IMG/VR virus record: IMGVR_UViG_3300025358_000002
Coordinates: 42,866-106,865 of that record
Source of the DNA: a virus
Lineage: Duplodnaviria; Caudoviricetes
Length of the DNA: 64,000 nucleotides
Strand: one strand, 5' to 3'
A model generated the notes under the pieces. It saw only the letters and a list, made by a program, of their open reading frames with translations. It ran no database searches and was not told the DNA's origin. The stretch's first letter is position 1; each line of letters opens with the position of its first letter. Positions 581 through 21,891 of the stretch are shown here, piece after piece. The translations under genes and the position numbers were made by a program.

Positions 581-1582
581 ATGTCTGCTCGTTCTTTTGT
601 TATTCAACTCCAGCCAGGTCAAGGCCAGGCTCTCCTTCCTGATCACCGCAAGATGATCCCTGGTGTACAGTACGTCGTTGACGCTGACACCTTCAACCGG
701 ATCTCTCTTAGCGCACGTCAGAACGTAATCCAAGTTGTAACAGTCAACATGGATGCTACTAACACTGGTGCTACCAGCGTTAGCGGTACCTATGTTCCCG
801 CCCAAGCTTCTTCAGGTATCAACCGTCAGGTGTTCGGTGCTGGTCAATCAGCGCTTAACATCCTTGGTACCGTAAGCCCTAACGCATCAACATTCAGCCT
901 TGCTGGATTTGCTGCACAGGGTTGGAGCGCCGGTGGTGAGACTGGTTCCAACACTGGTATTAGCACTCCTCAGTCAACTTTGAGCGGTAATGCTGTCAAT
1001 GTTGCTTTGACAAGCCCAGACGGTGCTCGCTACGTACTCGGTTACAACGGCACCGCATCAACCATCTCTGGTGGTTGGGCTACCGTATGGTATGACTACA
1101 ACAACCGCTACATCTCAACTGCTTCTGGTGTTTCTTTGCTCGTTAAGCAGGACAGCCTCGGCACGCCTTACGCTGTCAGCGTCAACACGACTTTGTCAGG
1201 TGTAAACGGTAACGTTGTTACTGTCGGCACAAAGCAGGGTGAGTTCGCAGGTATTGCTCTCACGAACATTCCTGCCGGTAACTTCGGTTTCATTCAGATC
1301 GAGGGTACCTGCCCAAGCGCAGTTGTGGCTTCCGGTACTGCTGTAGGTGCTACCGTAGCTGTTAGCGGCACAAGCAACAACGGTGTTCTTGCCGTTCCTG
1401 CAACCACCACTACATCTGTCAGCACTGCTGGTGTTGTAACTGGTTCAGCCCTTGCTAACAACACTGTTGGTACAGTTCTTACTGCTCCTGCATCAGGCAC
1501 CAATGGTCAGTTCTACTCGGTCATTGAGATCCGCAGCCGCCGCTCCAAGAAGCCCTACAACCGCTTCCTGAACAAGAACTAA
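581..1582 (+). CDS. virion structural/decoration protein, Ser/Thr/Gly-rich
   Basis: 333 aa, AGAAAGG RBS; FAGIALTNIPAGNFGFIQIEG resembles cement/decoration beta domains; 9 SG dipeptides. Confidence 0.55.
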   Translation: MSARSFVIQLQPGQGQALLPDHRKMIPGVQYVVDADTFNRISLSARQNVIQVVTVNMDATNTGATSVSGTYVPAQASSGINRQVFGAGQSALNILGTVSPNASTFSLAGFAAQGWSAGGETGSNTGISTPQSTLSGNAVNVALTSPDGARYVLGYNGTASTISGGWATVWYDYNNRYISTASGVSLLVKQDSLGTPYAVSVNTTLSGVNGNVVTVGTKQGEFAGIALTNIPAGNFGFIQIEGTCPSAVVASGTAVGATVAVSGTSNNGVLAVPATTTTSVSTAGVVTGSALANNTVGTVLTAPASGTNGQFYSVIEIRSRRSKKPYNRFLNKN

Positions 1583-1624
1583 CAAATAGTTGGTAGGCCG
1601 AAAGGCCCTAGACCCAAAGGTAAC

Positions 1625-2149
1625 ATGACAACAAAGAAGAACAACGGATGGGGGATTGAAGACCTCTCCCAGACCGGTGATGCAAACATTGATTCATTCC
1701 CAAACGAGTGGAAAGATGAGTTTGAAGGGTTGCTGTTTCTCGGCAAGCTTGAAACTGAAGTCACAAGTATTCCTTATCACAAATTTGTGGTAAGAACCCT
1801 TACAGTTAATGAAAAGCTAGAGGTTAGCCTACTAGCAAAGCCATTCATCGAAACGATCGGTTACGGTCGTGCTTACAGAGCCTCTGTAGTTGCAGCAGGC
1901 CTTGTAAGCGTGGATGGTAGAGACATGGTCCCATTGAGTAAGGGGATCAATGTCATTAGACAAAAGTATGAGTATATCGTTAACAACTGGTACGACACAG
2001 TTGTCGACATCTTGTATCAGGAAATCGACAAGCTCGAGACCAAGGTTATCCTTATCCTCCAAGAGTTGGGCATCATTGATGCCCTTATCCCCCTTGACGT
2101 CTTTGAAAAGACAGAAGAGGAAAAGGATACCCCAAAAGGTGGAGAGTAG
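1625..2149 (+). CDS. tail assembly chaperone (G-like)
   Basis: Position before tape measure; slippery heptamer C CCA AAA near 3' end. Confidence 0.8.
   Translation: MTTKKNNGWGIEDLSQTGDANIDSFPNEWKDEFEGLLFLGKLETEVTSIPYHKFVVRTLTVNEKLEVSLLAKPFIETIGYGRAYRASVVAAGLVSVDGRDMVPLSKGINVIRQKYEYIVNNWYDTVVDILYQEIDKLETKVILILQELGIIDALIPLDVFEKTEEEKDTPKGGE
2131..2137 (+). promoter_or_regulatory. programmed -1 ribosomal frameshift site (C CCA AAA)
   Basis: X XXY YYZ heptamer in correct phase; the -1 frame is open from 2131 into ORF 2197-2553. Confidence 0.8.
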
Positions 2150-2553
2150 ATCCGTACATCATTGAGGAAAGCGAATTAGCTTATCAACAAGGTGTATTGA
2201 ACAAGCCCAACCTTAACATGGTTCAGCAAGCAATGCTTTCTGTCGTTAGAATCCGTAAGAACGAAGAAGAATACGATCTGGAAGTTGCTAAGTTTGAGCA
2301 GAATATGTTCATCAACAATCCTGAGCTTTACAAAAAGTACATGGAAAAGAAGGAACAAGACGCTATCAGTGGCAACACTGACATTCAGTGGCTTGCTCCT
2401 GAGAGTGTTGAAGAAGCTGCTGAGTTGGTAAACCTGTTTAGCGATATCGATAAACAGCTCAAAGAGATGGAAGACAACCCAGATTCACCGTCAGCAAGTT
2501 TCCTAGATTTGTTTGGCGGTATCAACGTGGACGAGATTGGAGGTGATGAGTAA
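2131..2553 (+). CDS. tail assembly chaperone, -1 frameshift extension (GT-like)
   Basis: -1 frame reads PKRWRVDPYIIEESELAYQQGVLNKPNL..., continuous with ORF 2197-2553, which has only a TTG start. Confidence 0.75.
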   Translation, partial: PKRWRVDPYIIEESELAYQQGVLNKPNLNMVQQAMLSVVRIRKNEEEYDLEVAKFEQNMFINNPELYKKYMEKKEQDAISGNTDIQWLAPESVEEAAELVNLFSDIDKQLKEMEDNPDSPSASFLDLFGGINVDEIGGDE

Positions 2554-4817
2554 TGCCAGATCCGATACAATTACAATTTGAATTCCCTGACGATGCTGGT
2601 CCGTTATCCGAACGATTTAATACCCTCGGCACAATTTCTAGTCAGATGCGTGACGACTGGCAAACCATTTCCGATTCAATGCAGAGTACTCTTGATAAGG
2701 CCGTAGATATGCGGTCTAAGATTGTAGAGCCTCTTAACGAAATGCTTACTGGCATGAAGAGTGTCGTTGATCTTGTTTCTCAAGGCATTAAAGATAATGC
2801 TACAGGTGCCAAGGAAGTTCTGGCCACCATCAACACTATCCTTCAGAGCTCAAACAGCATTAACGCTGTTATGAATAGAACAGGACAAAACGGTCCTGGA
2901 GCTGCCAGCCAAGGTTTCTCTAATCCTCTTGCCAATCCTATGGCATGGGGAGCGTACGCCAACCAGATGCACAACTATAGCTCCGACCCTTTCTGGAGTG
3001 CAAGCAGTCGAGAGTCGCAGTTTGCTGACCCTAACCACCCAGACTTCTTTGAAAGTAGGGCACGCATTGTTCCTACCGAAGAAGAGTTGGGTGGAACTGC
3101 TGCAGCTACCAGCAGGAAAAGATCAAGTGTTCCTGTAGAAGAACCATACGAAGAAGATCAAATCCCACATGCCAGTGGAAGATTGGCTGATGAAGCTCAA
3201 TATGACACTGCAAGAGCTTCATACAGACCTCAATCCGCCATTCCTCTTAATATTTCTGAATTGTATCCTAATTTAGCTAATGCTGGTTATTTTGACAATC
3301 TAAATAACTACAACTATCAGCACGCTCCAAGCATGGCAATTTCTGGTTTAACGCAAACCATGCAAGACAGTGCAATCGGTCAGCTCCTTGGCATGATCCC
3401 AGGTGCGAACACTATCATTCCTGGTATGTCCAACATTGCTCAATCTTATGCAAAATGGGCAAGTGCTGGGCAACAATATCAAGCACCTGCACCTGGTGAA
3501 GAAGTTGGCCCAGCACCGGCTGGCAATTTCTATACACAAGCTCAACAAGCATTGATGTCTAAGCTTGATTCACTGGTTGGTTCTTTAGACCGTTTTACTC
3601 AATCCAGCACTGCGGTAAATGCAGCAGGAATTATGAGCACAAGCATGGTTGCTTACAATCAGTTTAAAGTAGCAAACAATGCTATCCGCTCAGATATTTC
3701 TTACCCGATGCAAGCGTTGGGCGACATTACTGGTACGGTAAGCCCCACACAGTTTGCTTCATACAAAGCTCAAGCACTTGGTTACAACATACCTGAAAAA
3801 GCTTTGTACAGTACTACTGACGCTTACACAGCAATGCTGGCTGCCCAGCAGCTTGGTTACCGAGGGCCTGGTGAGGTCACTAATTACGAGAACTTAGACT
3901 ATCAACTTCAGACAGGGTATGGTCTTAGTCACGGTGAAACCCAGCAGCTTATGAGTTCTGCGCTTGCCTATGGTCTTGACCTTAATCAATACACCACTGG
4001 TTACGAGCAAGCAAGAAAACTGGGCGCAAGCACCGACACAAACATGGCTTATGTAAGCCAGAACTATCAGCTTGGTGCTGGTACAGCGGCAAGCCTTGGC
4101 TTCCGTGGTAGTGCTGCCACAGCGTTTGGTAATGCTGCCGTAGGATTTGGTGCTGGCAATTTTGTTGCTCAAGCTGCCGGTATGACCGGTCAGGAACTTA
4201 TGGGTACTCCGCTGGGTATTGCTTTGTTCGCGCAACAAGCTGGCACTTCATTCATGGACTCATACTCAGCAGCTCAGAACATGGGGGCAGCACAAGCAAC
4301 CAAACTGCAGTCTCAGGCCATGATGCAGTTATTGCAACAGATTGGTATTCCGGTCAACACAATTAGCAAGCCTTCCGACCTTAACCCTTATGCAATTAAA
4401 CTAAGTTTAATTCTCCCTCAGCTTGGTGTTACTGATGTTACAACACCACAACAGGCAGTTGTTTGGGCGTACAGTATAATTGCACAGGCTAGAAACCTAC
4501 CCAATACAACCTCTATGCTTAGTAGTTATACTCAACCAACGACAGCATCGGGTACGGCCACGCAAGGTGTTCCATCAACATCAACATTCCTTAACAGCTT
4601 AACCACTGACACTAGTGCATTGGGAATAGCTGCAATGAATAACGGATTGAACGTAGCCGGAACTTCATCGTCGACATCGGCCACCACATCTAATGGAGTC
4701 ACCGTACAAGTGGCGTTGGCACCAGGATTACAGAACATCCTTACTGCTGCAGTTCAAAGCGCAAACGCTAGCGTGACAAGCCCATCAGCAAGAGTTAATC
4801 AGACCACTACTTCATAA
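2553..4817 (+). CDS. tape measure protein
   Basis: 754 aa, Ala/Gly/Gln-rich helical composition, follows frameshifted chaperone. Confidence 0.75.
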   Translation: MPDPIQLQFEFPDDAGPLSERFNTLGTISSQMRDDWQTISDSMQSTLDKAVDMRSKIVEPLNEMLTGMKSVVDLVSQGIKDNATGAKEVLATINTILQSSNSINAVMNRTGQNGPGAASQGFSNPLANPMAWGAYANQMHNYSSDPFWSASSRESQFADPNHPDFFESRARIVPTEEELGGTAAATSRKRSSVPVEEPYEEDQIPHASGRLADEAQYDTARASYRPQSAIPLNISELYPNLANAGYFDNLNNYNYQHAPSMAISGLTQTMQDSAIGQLLGMIPGANTIIPGMSNIAQSYAKWASAGQQYQAPAPGEEVGPAPAGNFYTQAQQALMSKLDSLVGSLDRFTQSSTAVNAAGIMSTSMVAYNQFKVANNAIRSDISYPMQALGDITGTVSPTQFASYKAQALGYNIPEKALYSTTDAYTAMLAAQQLGYRGPGEVTNYENLDYQLQTGYGLSHGETQQLMSSALAYGLDLNQYTTGYEQARKLGASTDTNMAYVSQNYQLGAGTAASLGFRGSAATAFGNAAVGFGAGNFVAQAAGMTGQELMGTPLGIALFAQQAGTSFMDSYSAAQNMGAAQATKLQSQAMMQLLQQIGIPVNTISKPSDLNPYAIKLSLILPQLGVTDVTTPQQAVVWAYSIIAQARNLPNTTSMLSSYTQPTTASGTATQGVPSTSTFLNSLTTDTSALGIAAMNNGLNVAGTSSSTSATTSNGVTVQVALAPGLQNILTAAVQSANASVTSPSARVNQTTTS

Positions 4818-5383
4818 TGACAATTATTAATCCGCCTAACATGCTTGTTGATGACAAGCCAAGTAATGCTACGGCAACGCTTGTTGACAACACTACCGGC
4901 ATTACATACAGTTTCCCATACAACGTCAACTCAGTTAACTGGACCTACCAGATGAACACAACCAGCATGAGCACCATTGGTGGTCGTGTGACACAACTTC
5001 TTTCTGCTCGAGCCAACACGGTTGTAATCCAGGGAGAAGCTGGCAGTAGAGAAAAATTGCTCACACTCTACGGCAATTTTAAAACCATGCAAGACAACCA
5101 GAACATTTATAAAACAAGTGCGACGCTTAACATCCCACGACAGGGCGGCCAATCTTCTTTCTTCAACACCCATGTTTGGCTTGAGCAAATGCAAATTGGT
5201 TGGAGTGTTGACACTGTTGTTTACCCATACAGCATGGCATTTGAGATCGACAACGATCTCAGTGGAAATTCAGCGTTATCAACAGCAATTGTAAACGATG
5301 CGTTGAACAGAATTACAAGTGGTATTGGATACAATTCCAACTACCTTGGTTTCACTTCCCAAAGCGTAAACATTAGCTTATAG
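4817..5383 (+). CDS. minor tail / tail tube initiator-like protein
   Basis: 188 aa, coupled (TAATG) to tape measure; positional call. Confidence 0.5.
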   Translation: MTIINPPNMLVDDKPSNATATLVDNTTGITYSFPYNVNSVNWTYQMNTTSMSTIGGRVTQLLSARANTVVIQGEAGSREKLLTLYGNFKTMQDNQNIYKTSATLNIPRQGGQSSFFNTHVWLEQMQIGWSVDTVVYPYSMAFEIDNDLSGNSALSTAIVNDALNRITSGIGYNSNYLGFTSQSVNISL

Positions 5384-5394
5384 ATAGGAGAATT

Positions 5395-5562
5395 ATGGCA
5401 CAAGATTACACATACTCAAACTGCAAGATCTCCTCGCCTATCTTGCAGCCCGACAAGCAAACAGTTCAATTTAACGGTCTAGCTTGGAGCGTAAACGGGA
5501 TGATTCATCAGGTTTCTAGTAACGATCAAAGTTGGCAAACATGGCTGGGAATGCAACAGTAA
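5395..5562 (+). CDS. small hypothetical protein (55 aa, not in ORF track)
   Basis: AGGAG RBS, MAQDYTYSNCK...WLGMQQ*, fills the gap between tail genes. Confidence 0.6.
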   Translation: MAQDYTYSNCKISSPILQPDKQTVQFNGLAWSVNGMIHQVSSNDQSWQTWLGMQQ

Positions 5563-6206
5563 CACTCTTTGATGGTAACAGATCCATCACGTTTGAAGTA
5601 TGGCTTCAGAGTTTCTCTACTGCCACTACCAATGAATTTGCTTCTACGCAAGTACGCTCAGGCGTTTGCTGGATGCCAATTCGTCGTGCAGAAATGTCCG
5701 TCTCATTCTCTATTGTGTGGCCACTTGTCAGTTTTAGAAAAAGCAAGGACTTGGGATTTGAAAATTTCGATCCTAAAGACGGATTTGGGAAGATGCAGTA
5801 CTTCCAGGATGTTATCCGCAAGCATCAGTTAGCACTTGTAAACGGCGGGACCAACACACCCATGGTTCTGAATTACTACAACAACAGTGATCCCGGCTCG
5901 CCCATCTACAACACGCTGATTAGCAAAGACCCTCTACCTGCTTTGCAATACACAGGCTGGATTCAGAATGTAGAAAAGAACTATATTAGATTCCAGAGCG
6001 CTTATCAAACAAGTTACAACATGGTTGTTATAAACAAGAACCAATCAAATCCAGCACTACCGTCATTCCAGAATTCAACATCTAACACTGTATTGTCCAG
6101 AACATATGCACCCACTGCTGCTACTCAGAACTTGTACGGTAAGAATTGGATCAACGTGAATACAGTGGCAAGTGGCACTAGCTTAATTCAAGGACTTCCC
6201 AAATAA
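5541..6206 (+). CDS. minor tail/baseplate protein
   Basis: ORF 5532-6206, ATG at 5541 preferred over TTG; positional call. Confidence 0.5.
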   Translation: MAGNATVTLFDGNRSITFEVWLQSFSTATTNEFASTQVRSGVCWMPIRRAEMSVSFSIVWPLVSFRKSKDLGFENFDPKDGFGKMQYFQDVIRKHQLALVNGGTNTPMVLNYYNNSDPGSPIYNTLISKDPLPALQYTGWIQNVEKNYIRFQSAYQTSYNMVVINKNQSNPALPSFQNSTSNTVLSRTYAPTAATQNLYGKNWINVNTVASGTSLIQGLPK

Positions 6207-8983
6207 TGAGTTGGAATAAATCAGGTACATTCACGTACACACCAGATATTAGCTGCTCTATCAGCACGATCAACAACGGTGTTATTGACGTATCTGCTGA
6301 TATCACAAACTTCCAGGTCACAAGAAACATGAATGCCACAAGCTCATTCACAATGACGCTTGCCAACCCTAGACGTAAGTACAACCGCGTAATCAATACG
6401 ATGGACAAAATTACGGTGTTTCTTAAAAGAACAAATTTTGTTCAAGTTTTTACGGGGTATGTGACGCTGGCACCGATCGAGACGTTGGTGCCAACACCGG
6501 TAACAGTAAACGCTTACTGTACGTTGAGAAATTTGCAGCAGACGTTCTGGGATGACACGCTTCTGCAGTTTCAATCTTTGTTGCTTAACTACATGGACAG
6601 CTCTGCATCCAGCAGCAACGCTACCTTGAATGATGGTGGTATTGCTCAGGTCATTGTCAACCTACTTACCAAGGTAGCTGGATGGGATCCAAGCAGAATC
6701 CACATCGCTCCAGTACCACAGAAGTTCCTTGATATCGCCGGTTCAATTGCAAAGAACCAAGACCTTTACAATTCTACGCTTAACCAAGCAGCGGTAGAAA
6801 ACATCGCAACCATTCTTGGTGTCAACAATATTACCAGTGGCAAAAGCGTATCCAAAGGCAAGTATACATACGGCAAAGTACAAACCATTAACGACACGTC
6901 TGCGCCGGACGGTGGTGTAGGTACAGCGTTCTCAATCTCTCGTTTTGTTGCCCTAAAGACTGCTGGTCTTAACGGAGGTAAAAAGTACTTCCCAGGTAAG
7001 AACAGTTTGAATGCAGTCGACTATAGCTCTATAAAAGACGACACTTACTACTGCTCTCTACCGTTCAGTTACATAACCAACACAAGCGTTAGCGGTGTAA
7101 ACGCAGCAAAGCAATGGGTTTCTTATAACCCATATAACCCTAATGGTATGGACTACAACGGACGTTTGCTTATTGCTTCCAACGATAAGACCAACCAGGT
7201 AGTTGTACTGAGAGCCACAAGTGTCACGCAGAAAACAGATGCAAACAGCAACCTTATTTATCAGAACGGTTCAACTGTTGCTGATCCCAATGTTAACTAC
7301 GGCCAGGTACACCCTGGCGTTGTAGCTTATCTTAATGGTGCTGTAAGCGATCCAACACTATGGACCGAGAAAATTCCTGTCGATTTCTCATACGTAAAGG
7401 TTGCATGGGCTGACGAATCACAGGTTTCTGTTCCAGGGCCACAGCCAACAATTGCCCAGTCGTCCTCCAACAACATCGATTCATATCTTGGCATCAACAC
7501 TCAATCCGCCACCACGTCTACTGTTCTTACCAGCGCAGCGAAAGCATTGCTTACATACTTAGACCAACAGATTGGTGCTATGTACAGCCAGGCTACAAGC
7601 GGGCCTGAGTACAGAGAAACCCCCAACAACCCATACACTCACTCCGGTGGTTGGTTCGACTGTTCTGGACTTGTGCAATGGGCATACAGACAAATTGGCA
7701 TTAACATCGGCGCCAACACTTTTGCACAGTGGGGTGCTGGTAATAACTCGGATGCCAATGAGAACGGTTTGTTTATCCCTAAAAGTCAGATGCCACAAGT
7801 TGGAGACTTGCTTTTCTGGGATGTGCCAGGGGACTATAAGCCAGGAGTAAACGGTCCACAACCTGCACACGTTATGTGCTTAACGCAGGATTTTGATCCT
7901 AAAACTGGTGTAGGCCAAGTAATCTCAGCTTCAGATTATGGTAGGCCAGTAGCTTATGGCTCAATTGTTTGGAGTCAGATCAAGAATGGCGGTGCTCCTC
8001 CCGGCTGGGGCATGTCATACATGGGTGCACGTAGACCACTATCCAAGATCTCTGGTATTGCAGGTTCGATAACACGACCCATCTCTGTGCCCAGTACTTC
8101 TGCATACTCCAACTACACAGGATCAGGTGCTTCAAACTTTGCCACATCCAGCGGTTCAACGTCTGACAACGCCACCATTCTTACGGACATTCAAGGATGG
8201 AACACCACGTGGATTGCACCCAACTATAACATCACCGCAACCACACTTCAGGGAACGCCCCAAGCATTTTCGCTTGACAATCCGTTGCTACAGGACCTTG
8301 ACCAGGTAATTTCTGCTGGTCTTAGATCGTATATGAGCGCGCCAAACGGCGACTTCATTGCTTGGTTCCCTGATTACTACGGTGTTTACGGTCAAGACCC
8401 TGCACTTGAAATCTCTGATATTGAAATTATTGACTTCCAGATCTATCACAATGATGACGCATTAGCAACTCACATTGCCGTGATCGGTGACACTACTGGT
8501 ATTGGTAGCTCTATCAACATGGTCGACTTCATGACCACTCAGGGCATTGTGAGTATTCAAGACGCCACCACTATGCAATTGTTGTTCGGCACGCTCAAGA
8601 ACAATGCATCTACCGACGAACAAAATGCTCAGATTGCCATCAAGTTCTTGAATAGATATGGCGTTAGACCACAAGTCTCCCAGCAGAATATGCTGCACAG
8701 TCATGCATTAGAGTACTTCTTTGCTTTGCAAACGTTCATGGCTCAATGGGGAGCACAGTTCGTTAGCAACGTAACGTTCACTTTTATGCCTGAGCTGTAC
8801 CCAGGAATGAGAATCGTTATCAACTTGGACAACGAAAATGGTGGCCAGGATCAATACCAGTTCTATTGCACACAGGTTACACACAATGGTGACCGTGTGG
8901 CTGGATTTACTACGCAAGCAACGCTGACTGCACCCATGAAGAACGGCGTAGTGATGCACTACGGTTTGGATTTTGTGTCATGA
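6206..8983 (+). CDS. baseplate hub protein with inserted NlpC/P60 peptidoglycan endopeptidase domain
   Basis: Hub-like N- and C-termini (FMPELYPGMRI); FDCSGLVQWAY (catalytic Cys), GDLLFW, AHV (His). Confidence 0.8.
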   Translation: MSWNKSGTFTYTPDISCSISTINNGVIDVSADITNFQVTRNMNATSSFTMTLANPRRKYNRVINTMDKITVFLKRTNFVQVFTGYVTLAPIETLVPTPVTVNAYCTLRNLQQTFWDDTLLQFQSLLLNYMDSSASSSNATLNDGGIAQVIVNLLTKVAGWDPSRIHIAPVPQKFLDIAGSIAKNQDLYNSTLNQAAVENIATILGVNNITSGKSVSKGKYTYGKVQTINDTSAPDGGVGTAFSISRFVALKTAGLNGGKKYFPGKNSLNAVDYSSIKDDTYYCSLPFSYITNTSVSGVNAAKQWVSYNPYNPNGMDYNGRLLIASNDKTNQVVVLRATSVTQKTDANSNLIYQNGSTVADPNVNYGQVHPGVVAYLNGAVSDPTLWTEKIPVDFSYVKVAWADESQVSVPGPQPTIAQSSSNNIDSYLGINTQSATTSTVLTSAAKALLTYLDQQIGAMYSQATSGPEYRETPNNPYTHSGGWFDCSGLVQWAYRQIGINIGANTFAQWGAGNNSDANENGLFIPKSQMPQVGDLLFWDVPGDYKPGVNGPQPAHVMCLTQDFDPKTGVGQVISASDYGRPVAYGSIVWSQIKNGGAPPGWGMSYMGARRPLSKISGIAGSITRPISVPSTSAYSNYTGSGASNFATSSGSTSDNATILTDIQGWNTTWIAPNYNITATTLQGTPQAFSLDNPLLQDLDQVISAGLRSYMSAPNGDFIAWFPDYYGVYGQDPALEISDIEIIDFQIYHNDDALATHIAVIGDTTGIGSSINMVDFMTTQGIVSIQDATTMQLLFGTLKNNASTDEQNAQIAIKFLNRYGVRPQVSQQNMLHSHALEYFFALQTFMAQWGAQFVSNVTFTFMPELYPGMRIVINLDNENGGQDQYQFYCTQVTHNGDRVAGFTTQATLTAPMKNGVVMHYGLDFVS

Positions 8984-9765
8984 GTGTAATTAGCAAGAAG
9001 GTAGATACTAACGATGGTGTACGCAAGGTTGTTTTAACAACTTACCCTGAGCTGCACCCACTCAGCCAGGCCCCGAACGCTGCTCAAAACTACTACTGCT
9101 TGGCATTTGACATGAAGGGTTTTCAGTATCAGGTTGATCTGCAGGCTATGCCACCAGGAGTTACGATTGATCAGCTGGCTCCCAACCAGGTGTGGTGGGT
9201 GGAAAAGCGCACTTCTTTATATCGCTTGTATCTATACGCTGGCCTCCAAGATCCTTCAACATTACAGATTGACAGTACCGCTTCACTGCCAGCACTCCAA
9301 AACATAACTACGTACAGTGGCACATATGTAAACCCCATACTTACTTCTGCTTATGAAACCGTGGCGTTCAATCCAGGGGTTTCGCTAAGTGGTATTGTTA
9401 ACCCAGTAATTATGAACACCGCCAGCGGTTCATTCTATTACTACCCAACTGCACCTACTGGTCAGTACAGCATTGCAATAACTGGTATGCCTACCATGCA
9501 GGGTCAAAGCGCAACATTTGCTTTGCTCGTTGCCAATGGGCCTGCTGCTTATCTCCCTTCCTCTATAGTTATTAACGGAGTTCCAGCATCTTCGGGAGGG
9601 CTACCGGCCCAGGGATCTACATACAACAACATCACTACGTACTATCAGGGTGGTTATGTTTGGACATCTGCTGACCCGAACACGGTGGATTCATACACGT
9701 TTACCGTGATCTGCACATCATCTAAGCCCACCTATGCGGTCTTTGCGGGCCTGACTAAGTTCTAA
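8980..9765 (+). CDS. baseplate spike/minor tail protein
   Basis: 261 aa between hub and wedge genes; beta-rich C-terminal domain typical of phage tail proteins. Confidence 0.5.
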   Translation: MSVISKKVDTNDGVRKVVLTTYPELHPLSQAPNAAQNYYCLAFDMKGFQYQVDLQAMPPGVTIDQLAPNQVWWVEKRTSLYRLYLYAGLQDPSTLQIDSTASLPALQNITTYSGTYVNPILTSAYETVAFNPGVSLSGIVNPVIMNTASGSFYYYPTAPTGQYSIAITGMPTMQGQSATFALLVANGPAAYLPSSIVINGVPASSGGLPAQGSTYNNITTYYQGGYVWTSADPNTVDSYTFTVICTSSKPTYAVFAGLTKF

Positions 9766-9803
9766 CAGCAATGTACTATAACCCTTATTTTACATAAGAT
9801 ATT

Positions 9804-10265
9804 ATGAAGACGATCACAGTTAGCAACGGCGATATTCAATTAAACAGCGGAAAACTGCAGTTTTCCTATGGTTCAAATAAACTAGCACAAGACATTGCTT
9901 TGTGGCTTGAAGAACCTTTGGGGACGGGGTGGACTACACCTAATTTTGGTAGCCTTCTTCCTGGCATGATCGGTCAATCTCAGACTAGCGGAACACCCGC
10001 AAGCATTGAAACTGAGATAATTAGAGTGTTACAGTTGTACCAGGGCAATCAAATCTTGGCACTACAAAATGCGCAAAATTCTGCTCAACTATCGATCTGG
10101 AATAGAAACGAGATTATACAAAACATTGTTTCTGTCAACGCAACGGTCTCAAACAACAACGGGACACAGATTAATGCCACCATTGTCATTCAAACACTTG
10201 CTGGCAACCTTGTTAACTTAATCGCTTCTATCAATAACAACGGAGTCACGGTCCAAAATGGCTGA
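9804..10265 (+). CDS. baseplate wedge protein (gp25/W-like)
   Basis: KLAQDIALWLEEPLG...PNFGSLL pattern; precedes baseplate J. Confidence 0.75.
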   Translation: MKTITVSNGDIQLNSGKLQFSYGSNKLAQDIALWLEEPLGTGWTTPNFGSLLPGMIGQSQTSGTPASIETEIIRVLQLYQGNQILALQNAQNSAQLSIWNRNEIIQNIVSVNATVSNNNGTQINATIVIQTLAGNLVNLIASINNNGVTVQNG

Positions 10266-12783
10266 TACAACAGGAATTCTAGCTAGATTACAAGCAGCTC
10301 TCACCACGTACGACCCTTCATGGGACGTAAGCGTAGGCAGCCCTACCTACAAGATCTTTGAATCAGTTGCTCAGGAAATCGCAAACGCTAACAACAACTC
10401 TACGCTGCAGACTTACAGCTACAATATTAACACAAAATCCGGTAGTGACCTTGACACGTTTGTCAATTTGTTTGGTATCTATCGTCAGCTCGGTAAGAGA
10501 TCTGTTGGAACCGTATCGTTTATTTCAAATACGCCAGCCATCAGTATCATCAATATTCCATTGGGAACTCAGGTAGCTGTACCAGTTGGCCCAAGGTACA
10601 CAACGCCAATTTACTTCACCACTACTGCGCCTGCTATTATCCCAATTGGCGGCACACAAACAAACGTGCCAGTCATTGGAACCCTGCCCGGTGTGTTCGG
10701 CAACGTTCCTGCTAATACCATTACGGCAATGGTAACCACTCTTAACGGAGTCACGTCAATTGCCAATGTTAACCCCACTACTGGTGGTACTGATCCTGAA
10801 AGCGACGCCCAGCTTCGATCAAGATGGCAGGCTACCGCATTCAACAACACTACCGGCACCAACGGTAAGTACATTGTTACTGCTTTGCAGAACCCAAACG
10901 TCAACCTTGCCAACGCTGTAAGCTCACAGTCTTTCTATGACGAACAGTTGTCAATTCAAGCAACGGTTAGTGGCGGCTCTAGCAACGTAACATTCCAGAT
11001 GATTGCATACAGTGGCATGACTAACGTAGTAAGTGGCACTGTATACAGCGGAACCAATATCGTTACATATAGCGGCTTCACTTCATCAACAACTGGCACT
11101 GCACTTGCTTCTGGCCTTCAGGCAATGGTCAGTGGTGTTGCACCTAATTACGGTATTAACGTAACGGCAACACCTTCAGGAAACACAATCAACCAGGGTC
11201 TTAATATCCAATTCGGTGGACCTAGCCCATACCGCTTGACAATTGGTAGTGGCAACACGCTTAGTGCAAGTGGCGTAACAGGTGTTACTGGTGCAGTTAC
11301 CATTAGTGGCACAACGTACACGGAATACGTACGTAGTGGCAACCCCGACATCGGTGCTCCAGGAACTTTGTCCTACAACCCAACATATAGCGGCTACCTA
11401 TATCCACAGGGGAACGAGCTTGTAGGAACTAGCTTAAACTCAGCAAGTCAAACTGTATACGTTCCTAACTCTGACTACTACTACAACAGCGGTGGTACGT
11501 ACACAGTAAGTGGTACCTTCTCGCCACAGCTGTTCTTGTCAATTGCTAACCCCACAAACAGCGGGACAATGTTTATTGGCAACACGGTTGAAGTGATCTC
11601 GGAATATAACCCTGCCTCCAATCGTTCATTGACAATTACTAGCGGTAACTACGTAGACGTATTTATCGATGGTACAACAGCTGGCATTGCTACCGAACAA
11701 GTTGTGTTTAACCCATCCTTTACGTTGTCTTCGGGCAATAGCATCAGGTACTTGAACTCAGGGAACTACGTACTTGGTAGCGGTGGCAGCGCAGGCACTC
11801 ACACAACAACCGATACTCAGGGTGACTACTACATCCCACTTGATCGTCAGCCACTTATCAACTTCCCATCGCAGCTCAGTGCAGCTTCTAGCGGAATTGC
11901 TGACACTTTTTTCCTTTACAATCCTATCAACAACACTGGGGCAACTTACCCAATTTGTTTGAATCCATACAATTTTATTACGTTTACTGGAACCGTAACG
12001 GCGTCCCAATATACGTATATAAATGTTTACGGTGTAACAGTTACTGGATCCACCGTATCGGGTATTAACTTCGTTTCTGTTCCAAACGCAAACACGTTCC
12101 TGGCACCCGGGTTGGCGTTGGCACAAGATGGTAGTGGTATCCTCGGTGCTGGTACGTGGATTTCAAGTGTGTCGAGCAGCGGTATTTACTTGAGCTCATC
12201 GGTATCAAACAGCGGAACAACAACCTTTAGTGGTAAGTCCGTTGCTTATCCAATTTACGATAACACCAATCAAGCGAACAGTGTTCACTCGATGACAGGT
12301 ATTGTTCTGGACGCATCCACACCGCCTTCAGGATGGCCATCTCAGCCATCTACTCCATCATGGGTACAGTACACACACAACTACAACAATGACGTTGTAG
12401 ACGTAGAAGCACTTGTTCAGCAGAGCAGACCATTTGGTACCAACACCATGGTTCACCAGGCCGTCTTTCAGCGATTGAGTGTAAGCGTAAGAATCGTATT
12501 CTCCAGTGGGTACAGTCTGCCAATTGTTCAGTCGAGCATCTTGAACCAACTTCAGAACTATTTCAATGGCAGCGGGTATCTTTCTATCATCTCGTTTGCT
12601 CAGATTCAAACCCAGATCATGAACGTAGCTGGTGTATCAAACGCACGTGTTACAAGTGTAAGCACAACGGCTCTGGATGGCACGGTTCTCAGTACATACA
12701 CATCAGACTTCCTGCTTCCAAGCAACCAGTTACCATTGATCAGCAACATTAATTACACAATTGTTGGAGCAAGCACCTTCTAA
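10258..12783 (+). CDS. baseplate J-like protein with large SG-rich insertion
   Basis: GSDLDTFVNLFGIYR, GNVPANTI, TGGTDPESDAQLRSR motifs; C-terminal VAGVSNARV. Confidence 0.85.
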   Translation: MADTTGILARLQAALTTYDPSWDVSVGSPTYKIFESVAQEIANANNNSTLQTYSYNINTKSGSDLDTFVNLFGIYRQLGKRSVGTVSFISNTPAISIINIPLGTQVAVPVGPRYTTPIYFTTTAPAIIPIGGTQTNVPVIGTLPGVFGNVPANTITAMVTTLNGVTSIANVNPTTGGTDPESDAQLRSRWQATAFNNTTGTNGKYIVTALQNPNVNLANAVSSQSFYDEQLSIQATVSGGSSNVTFQMIAYSGMTNVVSGTVYSGTNIVTYSGFTSSTTGTALASGLQAMVSGVAPNYGINVTATPSGNTINQGLNIQFGGPSPYRLTIGSGNTLSASGVTGVTGAVTISGTTYTEYVRSGNPDIGAPGTLSYNPTYSGYLYPQGNELVGTSLNSASQTVYVPNSDYYYNSGGTYTVSGTFSPQLFLSIANPTNSGTMFIGNTVEVISEYNPASNRSLTITSGNYVDVFIDGTTAGIATEQVVFNPSFTLSSGNSIRYLNSGNYVLGSGGSAGTHTTTDTQGDYYIPLDRQPLINFPSQLSAASSGIADTFFLYNPINNTGATYPICLNPYNFITFTGTVTASQYTYINVYGVTVTGSTVSGINFVSVPNANTFLAPGLALAQDGSGILGAGTWISSVSSSGIYLSSSVSNSGTTTFSGKSVAYPIYDNTNQANSVHSMTGIVLDASTPPSGWPSQPSTPSWVQYTHNYNNDVVDVEALVQQSRPFGTNTMVHQAVFQRLSVSVRIVFSSGYSLPIVQSSILNQLQNYFNGSGYLSIISFAQIQTQIMNVAGVSNARVTSVSTTALDGTVLSTYTSDFLLPSNQLPLISNINYTIVGASTF

Positions 12784-13745
12784 TGCCGGGCAACGTCTTC
12801 CCAATATCTCCTCACTCTACCTTAGCCAAGAAGGTAGAGAACTTCCCTGAGCAGATTTACAACTTTAATGAGGGCGACAATCTCACAAACCTTATGACCA
12901 TTTTGCTTGGCAACAGTGGAACTGGTCAGCTCAGAAATATTCAGACCGTAGCACGCCTTGGGCAAGAAATCATTGAGTTCAGTAACCTGGACAACATCCT
13001 CGGTCAAATCTACCAAATCAATAGAATTTCATCTGAGATCTATAGCTTCGCTACTAACCCGTTCATTGACCAGCTTCTTAATGCGCAATGGGAAGAAGTG
13101 CAACGTAAGGACGCTCTTTACCGCGAACGTTTGCTGGGAGCAGCGGAAGCATTTCAGATCGGTGCCAACCTATGGGGTATCCTCACCTTGTGCGAAGCTA
13201 TCACTGGTATCAAGTTCTATGCGCTTGAAAGCTGGAGAACTCCTGGGTATGGCAGAGCAGGACTCAACGCAGGTCAAGAAATTGTTCTTATCCCCTTGGT
13301 TGACGGGAACGTATTCAAGTGGGATCAGAGCAAGGCTCAGGGAATTCTTTCTGCAATACAAAAGATTGTCCCCAACAACTACATCATTAGTTTTGGCAAT
13401 CCATATCTGACAATGACGCAAGTGCCGCTAAGCAGCGTTACCGTTTCTGGCGGCAATCCAGTGGGTTATTCTGAATACTTTTATTTGCAGCCAACAGTAA
13501 CGGCAACGAACATTTATACGCCAGCAAACATTACGCCAGGTGCTGGTACTAGATACTGGCTCACAAGAAATCAGCAAAGTGTTGCTCCATACTTTGCTCA
13601 CTTACAGACTGAAGAAATCATCATTGACCTAACGGGCAACATTGTAAACGTTTCTAGCACAGATACAAATGGAAACGGTGCCCCAAGTAATAGCGTTGCC
13701 ATCCCTACAGTACAAGTTACATCTACCCTTTATGGTGCACAATAA
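12783..13745 (+). CDS. baseplate wedge protein (P2 gpI-like)
   Basis: Follows baseplate J; LDNILG...DALYRERL...GILTLCEAITG pattern. Confidence 0.6.
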   Translation: MPGNVFPISPHSTLAKKVENFPEQIYNFNEGDNLTNLMTILLGNSGTGQLRNIQTVARLGQEIIEFSNLDNILGQIYQINRISSEIYSFATNPFIDQLLNAQWEEVQRKDALYRERLLGAAEAFQIGANLWGILTLCEAITGIKFYALESWRTPGYGRAGLNAGQEIVLIPLVDGNVFKWDQSKAQGILSAIQKIVPNNYIISFGNPYLTMTQVPLSSVTVSGGNPVGYSEYFYLQPTVTATNIYTPANITPGAGTRYWLTRNQQSVAPYFAHLQTEEIIIDLTGNIVNVSSTDTNGNGAPSNSVAIPTVQVTSTLYGAQ

Positions 13746-16700
13746 TGTCGATCATCCCAAGTAATACTGACCCGTTACAGGAATATGTAAGCGGTGGTGC
13801 GACTCCACCATTAACAATTAACGGGCTTGTATATAACAAGATCTATGCACAAACAGGTGTGCTTGACACCATCAAGACCAACCAACGCACTGGGTATACA
13901 GATCCCAACATCAGCATTGTTAACGGGTCCAACAACCTCACTATCTTTGACCAATTTGTTGAAAACACGTGGATCTCTAGCCAGCAATTCGGTGGACCCA
14001 ACAGCCCTCCTGTTATCCTGACATACAATTTCAGTACCAACACCTACTTTAACATTGTCAAACTGTATGCGCTTAATGTTCCATGCTTTGTTGAACTAGG
14101 TTGGATTGACACCAACAACAATTGGAACGCTCTTCCTGGTTCCTCCACGTTTGTTAACGCCGGTGGCTCTGATATCTACACCACTACTGACTGGTTGCCC
14201 CTTACATACAACGCACCGTCTACACAGTACACACCCAATTTAGCAATCCGGATCACACGCAACCAAGCGGTTCAAGGTATTAGCAATGGTATCCCTGTAG
14301 ACCTTGCATACTCGGTGGGCCTTACATCCGTCAGTGTCCGTTTGCAAGTGCTGCAAGAATCTGATGTACCTTCTGCGGTTATCAACGGAACAAACTCCGT
14401 CAATACGCAGAACCGTTTTGGTTTCTTAGAGAACTACACGTTTGTCAACGATCCTATAGCCAACATTTATGGCAATGACACTGCATTCTGGAAGTGTGCA
14501 CCACAACCAACTGGCGACTCCATTGTTTATTTTTACGCTCAGGTAAGTGACCCTACGCCAACAACGATCAACCGTCTATACATTGACCCAATGTACAGCG
14601 GATGTAAGTTCAACATCTACTGGACTACTCAGTCCACTGCAGGTGGAACTGTTGACCCAGGTCAGTTCACATGGACACCAATTCAGAGAGACTTTAATCT
14701 GCGTAAAGGGCTCTATGATTTGCCAAACGTTACGTGTACGTACTTGAAGTTTGAGTTCACACAGCTTATACCAGAAGCATATGACCTGCCTGTTGACGTC
14801 ATCACAAAAACTGTCAACGTGTTTCCTTCAGATGTTGAAGAATATTACAGTCAAATTGAAAGCAACATTATCGATGGAAACTCTGTTCAGTACAGTTTCC
14901 TTGGCAACAACAACAACCCACAAACTTCAACTACCACAAACCTGAATGCTTCTACGCTGTTTGGCCTGTCTTCAAATACTATCAACAATGACATCTCTTG
15001 GCCAAACCTAGGTTCACTTAATTCTTCACAGCTTGGTAATACCACTACGACTGCTCTTACAACCAACTCCTACATTACTGACCCTACTTTTAGTTACAAA
15101 ACCATTGACAACAATGGTAATTACAATAACGTTGCATACAACCAGTTCTTGCAGCGTCGTTTCCCGTGGACAACCGTACACAACTACACTCAGATTACTA
15201 TTGATCAGAGCTGGCACGAAGCCTACTTCACGGGTATCCAGTATCTTACAGCGTTTTACGAACAACAGTTTGACGATATCCGCAGCAACCCAACCAATCT
15301 GATCGCAAGTAACGGCACCACCAACGGTTTTATTTCTCAGAATGTTAACTACGTGGGTCTTAACCCCGATGACACTGCCACAACAAAATGGTACTCAACT
15401 CTTGATACATTCACCAGTTTTAATATCGGTGCTCTTACTAGTGACTGGAGCAGTTTCTTAACAGATTCGCAAGTTCTTATGAACGATTCATCGGTTCTGC
15501 TTAGCCAGTACAGAGATAATTGTTCCGCCAGCGGTATTGGCAACTTTGGAACCAGCACCATTGTTGCTGTTTCAGGTCTTGCCAGCAACAACTCTTATAG
15601 CATTCGTTCAGCAGCGTACCCAACATCGAGTAACGAAATTGCGTATACAGATGCAAACTTTATCACGATCAACAATTGGTCAGGTTTGAGCGGCACCACC
15701 GTAGCAACACAAAAAGTGTCTTGGATTTCTGGCACTACAAGTGGTACCGCTAGCGGGTTGTCTGTTAGTGCTGGTGCATACACAGCTGTATACAACTTCA
15801 CTATTCCAGGTGTAGCGGCAAGCGGTACTACGCCATGGCTTCTTGATTTTGGTGCTCCAGCAGAGGGTGTTACTGGTTATGGTGTCTATAACCCAACGAA
15901 CCAATCTTTAAGCTATTACTTCTACACAGGGGTACAAGTATCCGGCAATAGCTCTGGCATCTCACAGGTAAGCGGAACGCTTAGTGCCTACACACAGTTC
16001 GTGAATTCATCCAATGCTCCTGTTAGCGGTACGGTCGTACCAGGATCTACGGTTACATTCGCATCCGGTAGCGGTAGCAACCTTGGCTACTTGACATCAA
16101 CGAACTATACCAGCAGCATTCCAACAAACACAATCCAGCTCGTTATCAGTGGCTTTGGTAGCCCGTACAACTTGTACCAACTTGGTGCTTTCCCATCACC
16201 AACAACTACATGGACATCTCCACAAGACCGAAACAACATGCGTGTAAGTGGTGTTGCCAGAATGTTCTTACCCTTTACTGATAAGGGTACATACAGAATT
16301 AGTTTATTTGCAAGCAACGGTGCAACGCAGACAGAGCTTGCGTTCAAGCAGTTCTCATCTGGGCAGATCCCTCTCAATACGTGGTTTGAAGTACAACTGG
16401 AATCTTTTACGGGTAAAAACTACTCCAATTTCTACGTACAAATTACCCAGGTAAACCAGTTTGTTGACGAAGTATTTTACGTAAGTATGCTGTCACCCTT
16501 CTACCACCCAGTACGTTTTGAGTACAGCACTATTAGCGGAGCTGCAACCAACTACCAGGTAATCACTGGTCCTATTAATGATCCTACATATTTTGTGAGC
16601 ACCACATCAGGTATTCCAGCCAGTGGTATTCAGCTGAGGATGACCGCTCTTGACCCAAACGTTTTCATTTCTGGAGTGAGTGTTGTTCCTTATTACAAGA

Positions 16701-16879
16701 GTAGTCCTTACTATGCAGAACTGGATATTGATTACGTTGGCAACAGTAAAACCAACGAGGTCAGTTCACGTAGAGCTGTAGCGAACAAACCGTTCTTTCA
16801 GAATACTACTGAGGTTTATCCTCTCCGTTTCAATGTAGATACTGTAGTAGGACCTACGACAAATTACGTTTCAGCTTGA
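13745..16879 (+). CDS. large minor tail / receptor-binding-type structural protein
   Basis: 1044 aa, beta-sandwich-type composition, SG-rich central region, last gene of tail module. Confidence 0.55.
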   Translation: MSIIPSNTDPLQEYVSGGATPPLTINGLVYNKIYAQTGVLDTIKTNQRTGYTDPNISIVNGSNNLTIFDQFVENTWISSQQFGGPNSPPVILTYNFSTNTYFNIVKLYALNVPCFVELGWIDTNNNWNALPGSSTFVNAGGSDIYTTTDWLPLTYNAPSTQYTPNLAIRITRNQAVQGISNGIPVDLAYSVGLTSVSVRLQVLQESDVPSAVINGTNSVNTQNRFGFLENYTFVNDPIANIYGNDTAFWKCAPQPTGDSIVYFYAQVSDPTPTTINRLYIDPMYSGCKFNIYWTTQSTAGGTVDPGQFTWTPIQRDFNLRKGLYDLPNVTCTYLKFEFTQLIPEAYDLPVDVITKTVNVFPSDVEEYYSQIESNIIDGNSVQYSFLGNNNNPQTSTTTNLNASTLFGLSSNTINNDISWPNLGSLNSSQLGNTTTTALTTNSYITDPTFSYKTIDNNGNYNNVAYNQFLQRRFPWTTVHNYTQITIDQSWHEAYFTGIQYLTAFYEQQFDDIRSNPTNLIASNGTTNGFISQNVNYVGLNPDDTATTKWYSTLDTFTSFNIGALTSDWSSFLTDSQVLMNDSSVLLSQYRDNCSASGIGNFGTSTIVAVSGLASNNSYSIRSAAYPTSSNEIAYTDANFITINNWSGLSGTTVATQKVSWISGTTSGTASGLSVSAGAYTAVYNFTIPGVAASGTTPWLLDFGAPAEGVTGYGVYNPTNQSLSYYFYTGVQVSGNSSGISQVSGTLSAYTQFVNSSNAPVSGTVVPGSTVTFASGSGSNLGYLTSTNYTSSIPTNTIQLVISGFGSPYNLYQLGAFPSPTTTWTSPQDRNNMRVSGVARMFLPFTDKGTYRISLFASNGATQTELAFKQFSSGQIPLNTWFEVQLESFTGKNYSNFYVQITQVNQFVDEVFYVSMLSPFYHPVRFEYSTISGAATNYQVITGPINDPTYFVSTTSGIPASGIQLRMTALDPNVFISGVSVVPYYKSSPYYAELDIDYVGNSKTNEVSSRRAVANKPFFQNTTEVYPLRFNVDTVVGPTTNYVSA

Positions 16880-16904
16880 TCTTTTTCTTGATCGGTGATA
16901 TGAT
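16876..16904 (+). promoter_or_regulatory. SigA-type promoter, leaderless transcript for helicase
   Basis: TTGATC-17nt-TATGAT with TG extension; ATG 6 nt downstream (16911). Confidence 0.6.
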
Positions 16905-16910
16905 TTGTTC

Positions 16911-18764: not shown

Positions 18765-18908
18765 AAAGGATGTAAAGGTGGGGAGAACTTGGTCCCAGAT
18801 AGTGAGGCGGCTGAATGTTTATCGTCGTCTCCAGAAGGGCCCGGTCTTCCTCGGGGGTCGCAGTCGGTGTCATACTTTGACTCCCCCCGAGGCCCTTCTG
18901 TAAACATT

Positions 18909-21890: not shown

Positions 21891-21891
21891 C

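Follow-up and report, generated by a model that had tools for sequence, protein, structure and literature searches.

Serine-glycine enrichment in the outer all-beta tail modules of an uncultured actinobacterial phage with a glycosyltransferase cassette

Tail genes and glycosyltransferase cassette

The window, a stretch of 64,000 nucleotides from an uncultured actinobacterial phage (the source phage), contains a series of tail genes followed by a helicase gene and a cassette of sugar-modifying enzymes. The tail genes and the two subregions considered here are the following.

90–563, + strand: tail tube (phrog_2756)
581–1582, + strand: p333, a 333-residue protein of the virion module, with the tube on one side and the chaperone on the other
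1625–2149, + strand: tail assembly chaperone (phrog_2792)
2553–4817, + strand: tape measure protein, assigned from position and length, at the same position as gp116 of Rhodococcus phage E3
10258–12783, + strand: bpJ, an 841-residue Baseplate J / gp6-like wedge protein (PF04865, 2e-27)
10945–12357, + strand: bpJ insertion, residues 230–700, clade-specific and mostly beta, carrying a Ser-Gly excess
13745–16879, + strand: p1044, a 1044-residue minor tail or baseplate-distal protein (phrog_2840, minor tail protein)
15512–16699, + strand: C-terminal all-beta module array of p1044, residues 590–985, carrying a Ser-Gly excess

By both sequence and fold, bpJ belongs to the PF04865 baseplate wedge family, its AF2 model (pLDDT 78.7) matching baseplate wedge chains in Foldseek at 5e-10 and chains from the phiCD508, phi812 and Mu baseplates at 1e-10 to 1e-8. 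Residues 230–700 are unmatched by E3 or cluster C phages, and Foldseek with the whole model did not name the fold of this insertion. Residues 590–985 of p1044 are predicted by AF2 to be all-beta with a pLDDT of 70–88, and resemble arrays of CBM-like or jelly-roll beta-sandwiches in Foldseek. The p333 protein has no match in Pfam or PHROG; a cement or decoration role is a weak lead, the Atlas lead to Phage_cement scoring only 0.84.

Downstream of the tail genes lie the helicase and the cassette.

16905–18764, + strand: SNF2-type helicase (ResIII, Helicase_C), located after the tail genes and ahead of the cassette
18789–19268, + strand: WhiB-like regulator (PF02467, 6e-13)
19265–19966, + strand: GTa, a GT-A type glycosyltransferase (phrog_29879, 2e-16)
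19951–21234, + strand: GT4, a GT-B glycosyltransferase and the conserved core of the cassette (PF00534, 4e-10; phrog_2170, 1e-48)
21231–21890, + strand: third glycosyltransferase-like protein (phrog_14945, 9e-55)
21892–22473, + strand: SAM-dependent methyltransferase (PF13489, 7e-13)
22470–23345, + strand: NDP-sugar epimerase/reductase (PF01370, 6e-28)
23338–23925, + strand: GT2-type glycosyltransferase (PF00535, 1.4e-6, over the cut-off)

The helicase shares 57% identity with that of G001, a complete contig that has the same gene order and amino-acid composition as the source phage. A Pfam scan of the cassette found GT2-type and GT1/GT4-type glycosyltransferase domains only, with neither a GT9-like nor a GT14 domain. 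Among NCBIfam models, GDP-fucose synthase (3e-22) and ADP-heptose epimerase (1e-18) come nearest to the epimerase, but both fall well short of the cut-off. GTa travels with GT4 in two lineages, A and B, and both genes are present in the genomes G003, G005, G009 and G011. No PF00303 or PF02511 match was found in the incomplete genome of the source phage, and five clade genomes of 79–89% completeness gave no match to PF00303 either; a ThyA-type hydroxymethylase was thus not found, and DNA is therefore an unlikely target of the cassette.

Location of the serine-glycine excess

The dipeptide Ser-Gly (SG) occurs 30 times in bpJ and the reverse order (GS) 9 times, with 10.3 SG expected (z 6.8) and none of 2000 shuffles reaching 30, and p1044 contains 23 SG and 8 GS, with 8.3 SG expected (z 5.5). 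These counts, like the 9 SG and 2 GS of p333, agree with those made by eye in a preliminary description of the locus, which had also proposed that all three proteins are enriched. Measured against shuffles, SG lies far over expectation in the two large proteins, but the excess in p333 (4.4 expected, z 2.4, p 0.02) is marginal because the binomial test of SG versus GS gives p = 0.065. In bpJ, 27 of the 30 lie in residues 230–700, the central insertion in which the preliminary description had placed nearly all of them, against 8.2 expected (z 7.5), and the remainder of the protein has 3 against 2.6 (z 0.3). In p1044, 21 fall in residues 590–985, where 5.5 are expected (z 7.4), and 2 fall elsewhere, where the expectation is 3.3 (z −0.8); the cluster that had been described as central is in fact in the C-terminal 40% of the protein. 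An SG excess of about four times expectation in the outer all-beta modules of two large tail proteins is thereby confirmed. The pattern is missing from the tube and the chaperone, neither of which has any SG, and from the tape measure protein, which is depleted (3 against 6.3 expected), all as described earlier; the major capsid protein has 2 SG and no enrichment. Across the virion module of the source phage (G000), the observed/expected ratio (O/E) of SG is 2.07, compared with 1.11 in non-virion genes. SG is singled out as the excess dipeptide, and NG, DG and TG are not, TG having an O/E of 0.96. Aliphatic residues are found at position −1 and Thr, Asn or Gln at +1 of the SG sites.

The possibility that this excess is an artefact of composition, low-complexity sequence or a repeated DNA word is negligible, although S, G, T and N are abundant in the proteins and a fibre encoded upstream is repetitive. 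No dipeptide is more enriched than SG in bpJ or p1044, and this still holds for shuffles confined to blocks of 20 or 40 residues, where z stays at 4.8–7.0, so that the excess is not due to co-location of serine and glycine. GS is at expectation, and the excess is missing from G001 despite its matching composition. Global and local composition are therefore ruled out, in keeping with the earlier argument against simple composition. The serines are encoded by AGY as well as TCN codons, combined with all four GGN glycine codons; this mixture rules out a DNA motif as the origin and places the signal at the protein level. The spacing of SG in bpJ and p1044 is irregular.

The upstream fibre lies outside the window (L043:7118-9751), has 877 residues, and contains 69 SG and 14 GS. 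It is built of heptads of the form x-L/T-S-G-x-aromatic/aliphatic-x with one SG per heptad, and matches the 7-residue beta-roll family PF21300 at 1e-23, over the cut-off. No PF21300 match and no regular 7-residue period were found in bpJ, p1044 or p333. Among PDB sequence matches of the fibre, those to the heptads of the RNA polymerase II CTD were rejected as periodicity artefacts, and a match to a P22-type needle is weak. Repeats of the grass ice-binding protein end in V-S-G and fold unmodified. The SG heptads of the fibre and its family match liken it to this beta-roll and to other Gly-turn beta-solenoids, from which bpJ and p1044 differ in that their SG sites are in loops of beta-sandwich-like modules.

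Conservation, probable structural turns and possible glycosylation

The SG excess is common to all 86 metagenomic bpJ homologues, and p1044 homologues in the clade have 14–28 SG against 6–10 expected. The glycosyltransferase gene GT4 is present in every SG-rich relative whose fetched DNA covers the cassette region, including G005, where it is located 40 kb away from the baseplate genes, and it is kept in 40 of 40 IMG/VR relatives with flanks covering the cassette, among which no variation of the cassette was found. E3 and G001, which both lack the cassette, have no SG excess in their bpJ or p1044 homologues, whereas the p333 homologue of G001 (7 SG, 5 GS, 3.5 SG expected) is about as SG-rich as p333 itself; the expectation that relatives without glycosyltransferases lack the enrichment is thus borne out for the two large proteins and not for p333. 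The clade contrast with E3 and G001 is a single evolutionary event, the SG-rich modules themselves being missing from the outgroups, and neither the wedge protein nor the helicase, used as scan queries, brought up any further intermediate lineage. Separately, the virion module of G001, which has no glycosyltransferase, has a mild excess of SG (O/E 1.35) and NG (1.36), the usual signature of turns.

The best explanation, to which we give about an even chance, is that SG serves chiefly as a structural turn motif in the lineage-specific outer all-beta tail modules, namely the 470-residue insertion of bpJ, the C-terminal beta-sandwich array of p1044 and the 7-residue-repeat fibre upstream. A strand would end on an aliphatic residue, pass through a tight Ser-Gly turn and enter the next strand, often with Thr, Asn or Gln first; Gly would provide the backbone angles and Ser would act as a small polar turn-former, with turn geometry as the likely selective reason for the dipeptide. 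Modules of this type would have been built or acquired by the phage clade, which would account for a high SG content in them and an ordinary one in the conserved cores. Coil accounts for 20 of the 30 SG in the bpJ model, compared with 39% of background positions; a strand is no more than 3 residues away in 23 cases, and 13 SG have strands on both sides. An alignment of 76 homologues shows 20 SG columns that persist in half or more of the sequences, with Gly retained in 81% and Ser in 67%; the best-conserved sites are S252, S545 and S641 of bpJ. This stronger conservation of Gly, the restriction of the excess to the modules, the turn location in bpJ, the beta-roll heptads of the fibre, the mild SG and NG excess of G001, the CBM-like fold of p1044 and the unenriched capsid and tube all support the turn motif. 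Against it, 9 of the 23 SG in the p1044 model, which is of only moderate confidence, are drawn within strands; in the bpJ model, the turn location foreseen in the preliminary description holds for most SG. In addition, G001 has the same composition and gene order with no comparable excess, so a three- to fourfold enrichment is not what turn chemistry by itself would predict, and the singling out of SG over NG, DG and TG also speaks against this reading. A turn role is also compatible with modification of an exposed Ser.

Alternatively, the serine of exposed aliphatic-S-G-T/N turns may be the acceptor for cytoplasmic O-glycosylation by the cassette of the phage, a reading that we consider possible and rather unlikely. 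GTa and GT4, the two further glycosyltransferases, the NDP-sugar epimerase and the methyltransferase would together place a short, possibly methylated glycan on the baseplate periphery and fibres, leaving the capsid uncoated. Consistent with this reading are the presence of GT4 in all covered SG-rich relatives, the normal bpJ and p1044 homologues of E3 and G001, the contrast between virion and non-virion genes, the location of most SG of the bpJ model in turns, the improbability of DNA as the target, and the enrichment of SG without TG, which would be expected of a serine-only enzyme. Lineages A, B and C contain the motif [AVIL]SGT at 3.4–6.5 times the expected frequency, and the recurrence of this context in three unrelated GT4-carrying lineages counts against a purely structural role. 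When lineages were first compared, SG ratios were 1.30–1.71 in four GT4-positive lineages and 0.93–1.50 in 14 GT4-negative phages (p 0.002), with SG as the second-best discriminator among 242 dipeptides and the one with the largest effect. However, a replicate with 48 portal-centred loci from lineage-B-type phages gave a median ratio of 1.25 for GT4-positive and 1.28 for GT4-negative loci (p 0.63); of the 20 GT4-negative records checked, 16 have no GT4 in the entire record. The co-occurrence across phages that had been anticipated thus appeared in the first sample and was not reproduced in the second, and it is therefore not counted as support.

Several further observations argue against the putative glycosylation or are neutral towards it. 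The clade contrast counts as one event, in outgroups that do not have the SG-rich modules. Replacement of Ser by Thr is not favoured at the SG columns, where Thr makes up 27% of replacements, Asn/Asp 29% and other residues 44%, compared with a Thr share of 26% for Ser elsewhere, and it is Gly that is the better conserved residue. The SG-rich p333 homologue belongs to a phage without glycosyltransferases. The lack of SG excess in the capsid and tube argues against the dense glycan coat that had been proposed.

A third possibility, that SG replaces deamidation-prone Asn-Gly as the turn dipeptide of long-lived free virions as an adaptation for chemical stability, is quite improbable. Asn-Gly is the fastest-deamidating dipeptide, and GT4-positive lineages have a lower O/E of NG (0.87) than the controls do (1.15); likewise, the virion module of the source phage has an NG ratio of 1.06 where that of G001 has 1.36. 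The sum of SG and NG is nevertheless 302 against about 183 expected in the source phage and 245 against about 181 expected in G001, and since it is still higher in the former, replacement alone does not explain the numbers. G001, G022 and G023 are environmental phages as well, yet without such a shift.

Comparison with known systems and significance

Should the SG serines be modified, their nearest functional counterpart would be the heptosyltransferases TibC and AAH, which act on TibA and AIDA-I. Working in the cytoplasm, these enzymes O-glycosylate numerous serines, but no threonines, at the turns of a surface adhesin with a repetitive beta structure (PMC4358343). One mapped site is Ser-313 of TibA, which the serine-only enzyme TibC heptosylates within a QNSGG turn (N-S-G-G) of the beta-helix, and a second is T-S-A-A (PMC4358343). 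The first offers a precedent for the glycosylation reading, while the second means that SG is no strict sequon even there. In the source phage, the SG and TG ratios of 2.07 and 0.96 and the location of most SG in turns would fit such a preference for serine if those serines are modified. The systems differ in that the TibC/AAH enzyme is a dodecameric GT9-like heptosyltransferase, a family that no cassette protein matches, and in that its substrate is a bacterial autotransporter and not a virion protein.

The mycobacteriophages Che8, Corndog and Myrna resemble the source phage as phages of actinobacteria with their own glycosyltransferases, and share with it the idea of a glycan shield. Their glycans are located at the C-termini of capsid and tail tube subunits, according to Freeman et al. 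(2023) as described in PMC12619734 and PMC11256854. The two Che8 proteins end in TGS and DGS, whereas the C-terminal residues in the source phage are GKIVKA for the capsid protein and RKELF for the tube, neither of which carries a Ser tail. None of six cassette proteins has a tblastn match at 1e-4 in the three genomes, which also contain no match to PF00534, and no SG enrichment was found in these phages; glycosylated phages thus exist without an SG excess and with unrelated genes, which counts against the SG serines as acceptors. A literature search on phage glycosylation sites returned nothing specific.

Chloroviruses make their own, partly methylated, glycans on atypical sites. The best relative of the cassette GT4 among solved structures is the chlorovirus GT4 B736L (PDB 3oy2, 4e-8), but the similarity is weak and confined to the nucleotide-sugar-binding half, and the chlorovirus sites are N-linked in a eukaryotic host, unlike the SG serines of an actinobacterial phage. 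Xylosylation of eukaryotic proteoglycan core proteins requires a GT14-type xylosyltransferase, the secretory pathway and acidic flanks. Its likeness to the present case is the Ser-Gly dipeptide itself, since the flanks here are aliphatic at −1 and T/N/Q at +1 and the cassette has no GT14 domain.

If the serines are only turn formers, the SG excess is a clean, lineage-specific structural dialect in phage receptor-binding modules and would serve mainly as a marker for recognising them. The bolder proposal, put forward tentatively, is that the GTa and GT4 cassette reads a serine-only turn signal (aliphatic-S-G-T/N) and adds glycans densely to the outer beta modules of baseplate and fibre proteins, as a virion counterpart of autotransporter heptosylation. 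Such a site code would differ from the C-terminal glycosylation known in mycobacteriophages. If the serines are glycosylated, phage tail glycosylation would have its first sequence rule, which would make glycosylated virion proteins predictable from metagenomes and would bear on the receptor binding and shielding of phage tails.

Ser-Gly dipeptides in the virion proteins

The source is a single IMG/VR virus record of 106,865 bp (47% GC, estimated to be ~72% complete) from a contractile-tailed phage, and the window covers its positions 42866-106865. The host is probably an actinobacterium, to judge from a WhiB gene and from distant similarity both to Rhodococcus phage E3 and to mycobacteriophages of cluster C. 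The genes considered here lie in the following order in the window:

90-563, tube
581-1582, 333-aa protein
next, chaperone, then tape measure
next, 925-aa NlpC/P60-bearing protein
next, wedge protein
10258-12783, baseplate J/gp6-like protein (841 aa)
next, DUF7297 protein
13745-16879, 1044-aa minor tail protein
next, SNF2 helicase, then WhiB
19265-23925, six-gene cassette: four glycosyltransferases (GTa and GT4 among them; two of the four are named by PHROG families only), a methyltransferase and an NDP-sugar epimerase

The excess of Ser-Gly (SG) over Gly-Ser (GS) is solid and stronger than the preliminary description stated. Its counts by eye proved exact on recount: 30 SG and 9 GS in baseplate J, 23 and 8 in the 1044-aa protein, and 9 and 2 in the 333-aa protein. 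Against shuffled sequences, SG is well above expectation in baseplate J (10.3 expected, z 6.8) and the 1044-aa protein (8.3, z 5.5) and marginally so in the 333-aa protein (4.4, z 2.4). In the two larger proteins no other dipeptide is as enriched as SG, also with shuffling confined to 20- or 40-residue blocks, under which GS, unlike SG, stays at expectation. The SG pairs draw on both codon boxes for serine and on each of the four codons for glycine, and selection therefore acts at the protein level. Residues 230-700 of baseplate J hold 27 SG (8.2 expected) and residues 590-985 of the 1044-aa protein hold 21 (5.5 expected), with SG at expectation in the remainder of each; the cluster in the latter, first placed centrally, is actually C-terminal.

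The pattern extends upstream of the window to several more SG-rich proteins. An 877-aa fibre (genome 32118-34751; L043:7118-9751 on the fetched DNA piece) contains 69 SG and 14 GS and consists of successive heptads that each carry one SG. Its match to PF21300, a 7-residue beta-roll family, is at 1e-23, and that to a P22-type tail needle is weak. SG and GS number 10 and 2 in a 245-aa protein, 8 and 2 in a 201-aa protein, and 10 and 3 in the mildly SG-rich sheath. The major capsid protein has 2 SG and no enrichment, and the tube, correctly described as lacking the pattern, has 0. Pooled observed/expected (O/E) SG is 2.07 in the virion module versus 1.11 in the rest of the genome. A 351-aa protein directly after the fibre (genome 34718-35773; L043:9718-10773) is 30% Gly, gives a Gly_rich_2 lead and resembles glycine-rich minor tail proteins of actinophages, and a 663-aa protein (genome 5670-7661; L044:670-2661) has extended Pro/Ala/Lys repeats of the PAPKPA type, a 14-residue unit (form TPPTPSGTGGGQIK) that occurs six times, and Gly-rich tracts at its end.

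Conservation and predicted structure of the Ser-Gly sites

Among 86 metagenomic matches to baseplate J, the closest 83, with identities as low as 34%, are SG-rich without exception and the three remotest only inconsistently; the medians over all 86 are 2.8 for SG O/E and 0.9 for GS O/E. Homologues of the 1044-aa protein behave alike. An alignment of 76 baseplate J sequences retains 20 SG columns in at least half of them. These columns account for 13.6 of the 24.6 SG that a protein has on average, and sites outside these columns still reach 1.75 times expectation. In the L155 and L157 pieces (both 14640-18244), the 1044-aa counterpart is divided into two ORFs of 717 and 483 aa, with the SG excess in the second, C-terminal one (11 versus 4.6 expected). 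The 333-aa protein and its homologues in L155 and the relative contig G001 keep an N-terminal LPDHRKM-PGVQY and a basic C-terminal IRS-RSK-PY-R--NKN around a variable middle; phage E3 has only a 67-aa gene in this slot between tube and chaperone.

The AlphaFold model of baseplate J (pLDDT 78.7), whose core matches baseplate wedge chains, has 20 of 30 SG in coil, 23 at most three residues from a strand and 13 between two strands. The model of the 1044-aa protein is weaker (pLDDT 62.6 overall); its SG-rich half is all-beta (pLDDT 70-88), with likeness to CBM-like beta-sandwich arrays. Most baseplate J sites are modelled in turns, as anticipated for SG, and those of the 1044-aa protein are divided between loops and strand ends. 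The commonest context is aliphatic-S-G-T/N/Q. The modelled locations would suit an exposed acceptor as well as a turn-forming role and do not discriminate between the two.

The most economical explanation, to which we give about an even chance, is a structural one: SG would be a turn motif of the outer beta modules that are specific to this clade. The preliminary description had instead proposed SG as the O-glycosylation sequon of the cassette, and that the SG serines are acceptors for it is possible but rather unlikely. This proposal outlives two of the sequence-based tests set for it, yet it is hard to square with a capsid and tube that show no enrichment and with the substitutions at SG serines. 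Gly is retained in 81% of cases and Ser in 67%, and a Ser lost before a kept Gly is replaced by Thr (27%), Asn/Asp (29%) or other residues (44%). The Thr share equals that for Ser elsewhere (26%), which gives no indication of selection to keep the hydroxyl group itself.

Association with the glycosyltransferase cassette

The order baseplate J, p320, 1044-aa protein, helicase, WhiB and GT4 is kept in all 40 IMG/VR relatives, as far as each fetched flank extends. In the more distant lineage of contig G005, baseplate J is SG-rich (18 versus 8.3 expected) and GT4 lies 40 kb away. Two relatives are without GT4, namely phage E3 and G001 (a complete contig of 124.7 kb in which the gene order is unchanged), and neither has an SG excess (G001 baseplate J, 15 SG and 19 GS; genome-wide, 237 and 256). 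The virion amino-acid composition of G001 is almost the same (S 10.2%, G 8.0%), and composition is therefore ruled out as the source of the asymmetry. Equal enrichment in relatives lacking the glycosyltransferases, which was to count against glycosylation, is thus not seen for baseplate J and the 1044-aa protein, but the G001 homologue of the 333-aa protein is similarly rich (7 versus 3.5 expected). The contrast amounts to a single evolutionary event, since which or before which the GT4-less outgroups have had no SG-rich modules at all.

GT4 homologues are also present in unrelated phages. In a first sample of whole contigs, which set the present lineage and three more with GT4 against 14 GT4-negative phages (complete uncultured genomes in three cases), SG O/E in ORFs of at least 300 aa was 1.30-1.71 versus 0.93-1.50 (one-sided p 0.002). 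Of 242 dipeptides only one separated the two groups better than SG, and none had a larger effect; [AVIL]SGT stood at 3.4-6.5 times expectation in three lineages while control words were flat, and the SG-rich proteins were not homologous between lineages by BLAST. The co-occurrence predicted under glycosylation failed in a replicate of 48 portal-centred lineage-B-type loci (median 1.25 GT4-positive versus 1.28 GT4-negative, p 0.63), where 16 of 20 GT4-negative records checked have GT4 nowhere in the record. Because the replicate did not hold and the SG baseline of uncultured phages (~1.25) is above that of cultured controls, the cross-lineage evidence is inconclusive. Asn-Gly (NG) is rarer where SG is commoner (whole-contig O/E 0.87 in GT4-positive lineages versus 1.15 in controls), perhaps because a turn prone to deamidation is avoided; that SG serves as a substitute for NG is, however, improbable. 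In an unrelated phage of ~36 kb (contig G009), an 889-aa protein (L096:16464-19133) with a GTa and GT4 pair 5 kb off has 27 SG and 8 GS (7.6 SG expected). It contains repeats of ~50 residues, and every repeat combines an H-x-D-N-F/Y-P-T motif with two or three x-S-G-T turns.

Comparison with known glycosylation systems

Known actinophage virion glycans are at the C-termini of capsid and tail tube (PMC12619734). The Che8 capsid and major tail subunits (L228:5051-5872 and L228:7613-8422), both reported to be C-terminally glycosylated, end in ...TGS and ...DGS, the reverse order of the motif here, whereas the capsid and tube of the window phage end otherwise. Che8, Corndog and Myrna show no match to the cassette enzymes and no SG excess. 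The nearest functional precedent for SG glycosylation is TibC/AAH, which heptosylate serines only, among them one from the TibA beta-helix that sits in a QNSGG turn (PMC4358343), but their enzyme family is unlike any in the cassette. The closest solved structure to GT4 is, weakly, chlorovirus B736L. DNA is an unlikely target of the cassette, judging from gene content, since no ThyA-type hydroxymethylase was found in the source record or five near-complete clade genomes. Tetrasphaera phage TJE1 (L041:5388-10731), a cultured actinophage, has a similar cassette (nucleotidyl transferase, epimerase, methyltransferase and a GT4 at 38% identity) and tail proteins with a mild SG excess only (36 versus 22.9 expected), and would offer a culturable test case.
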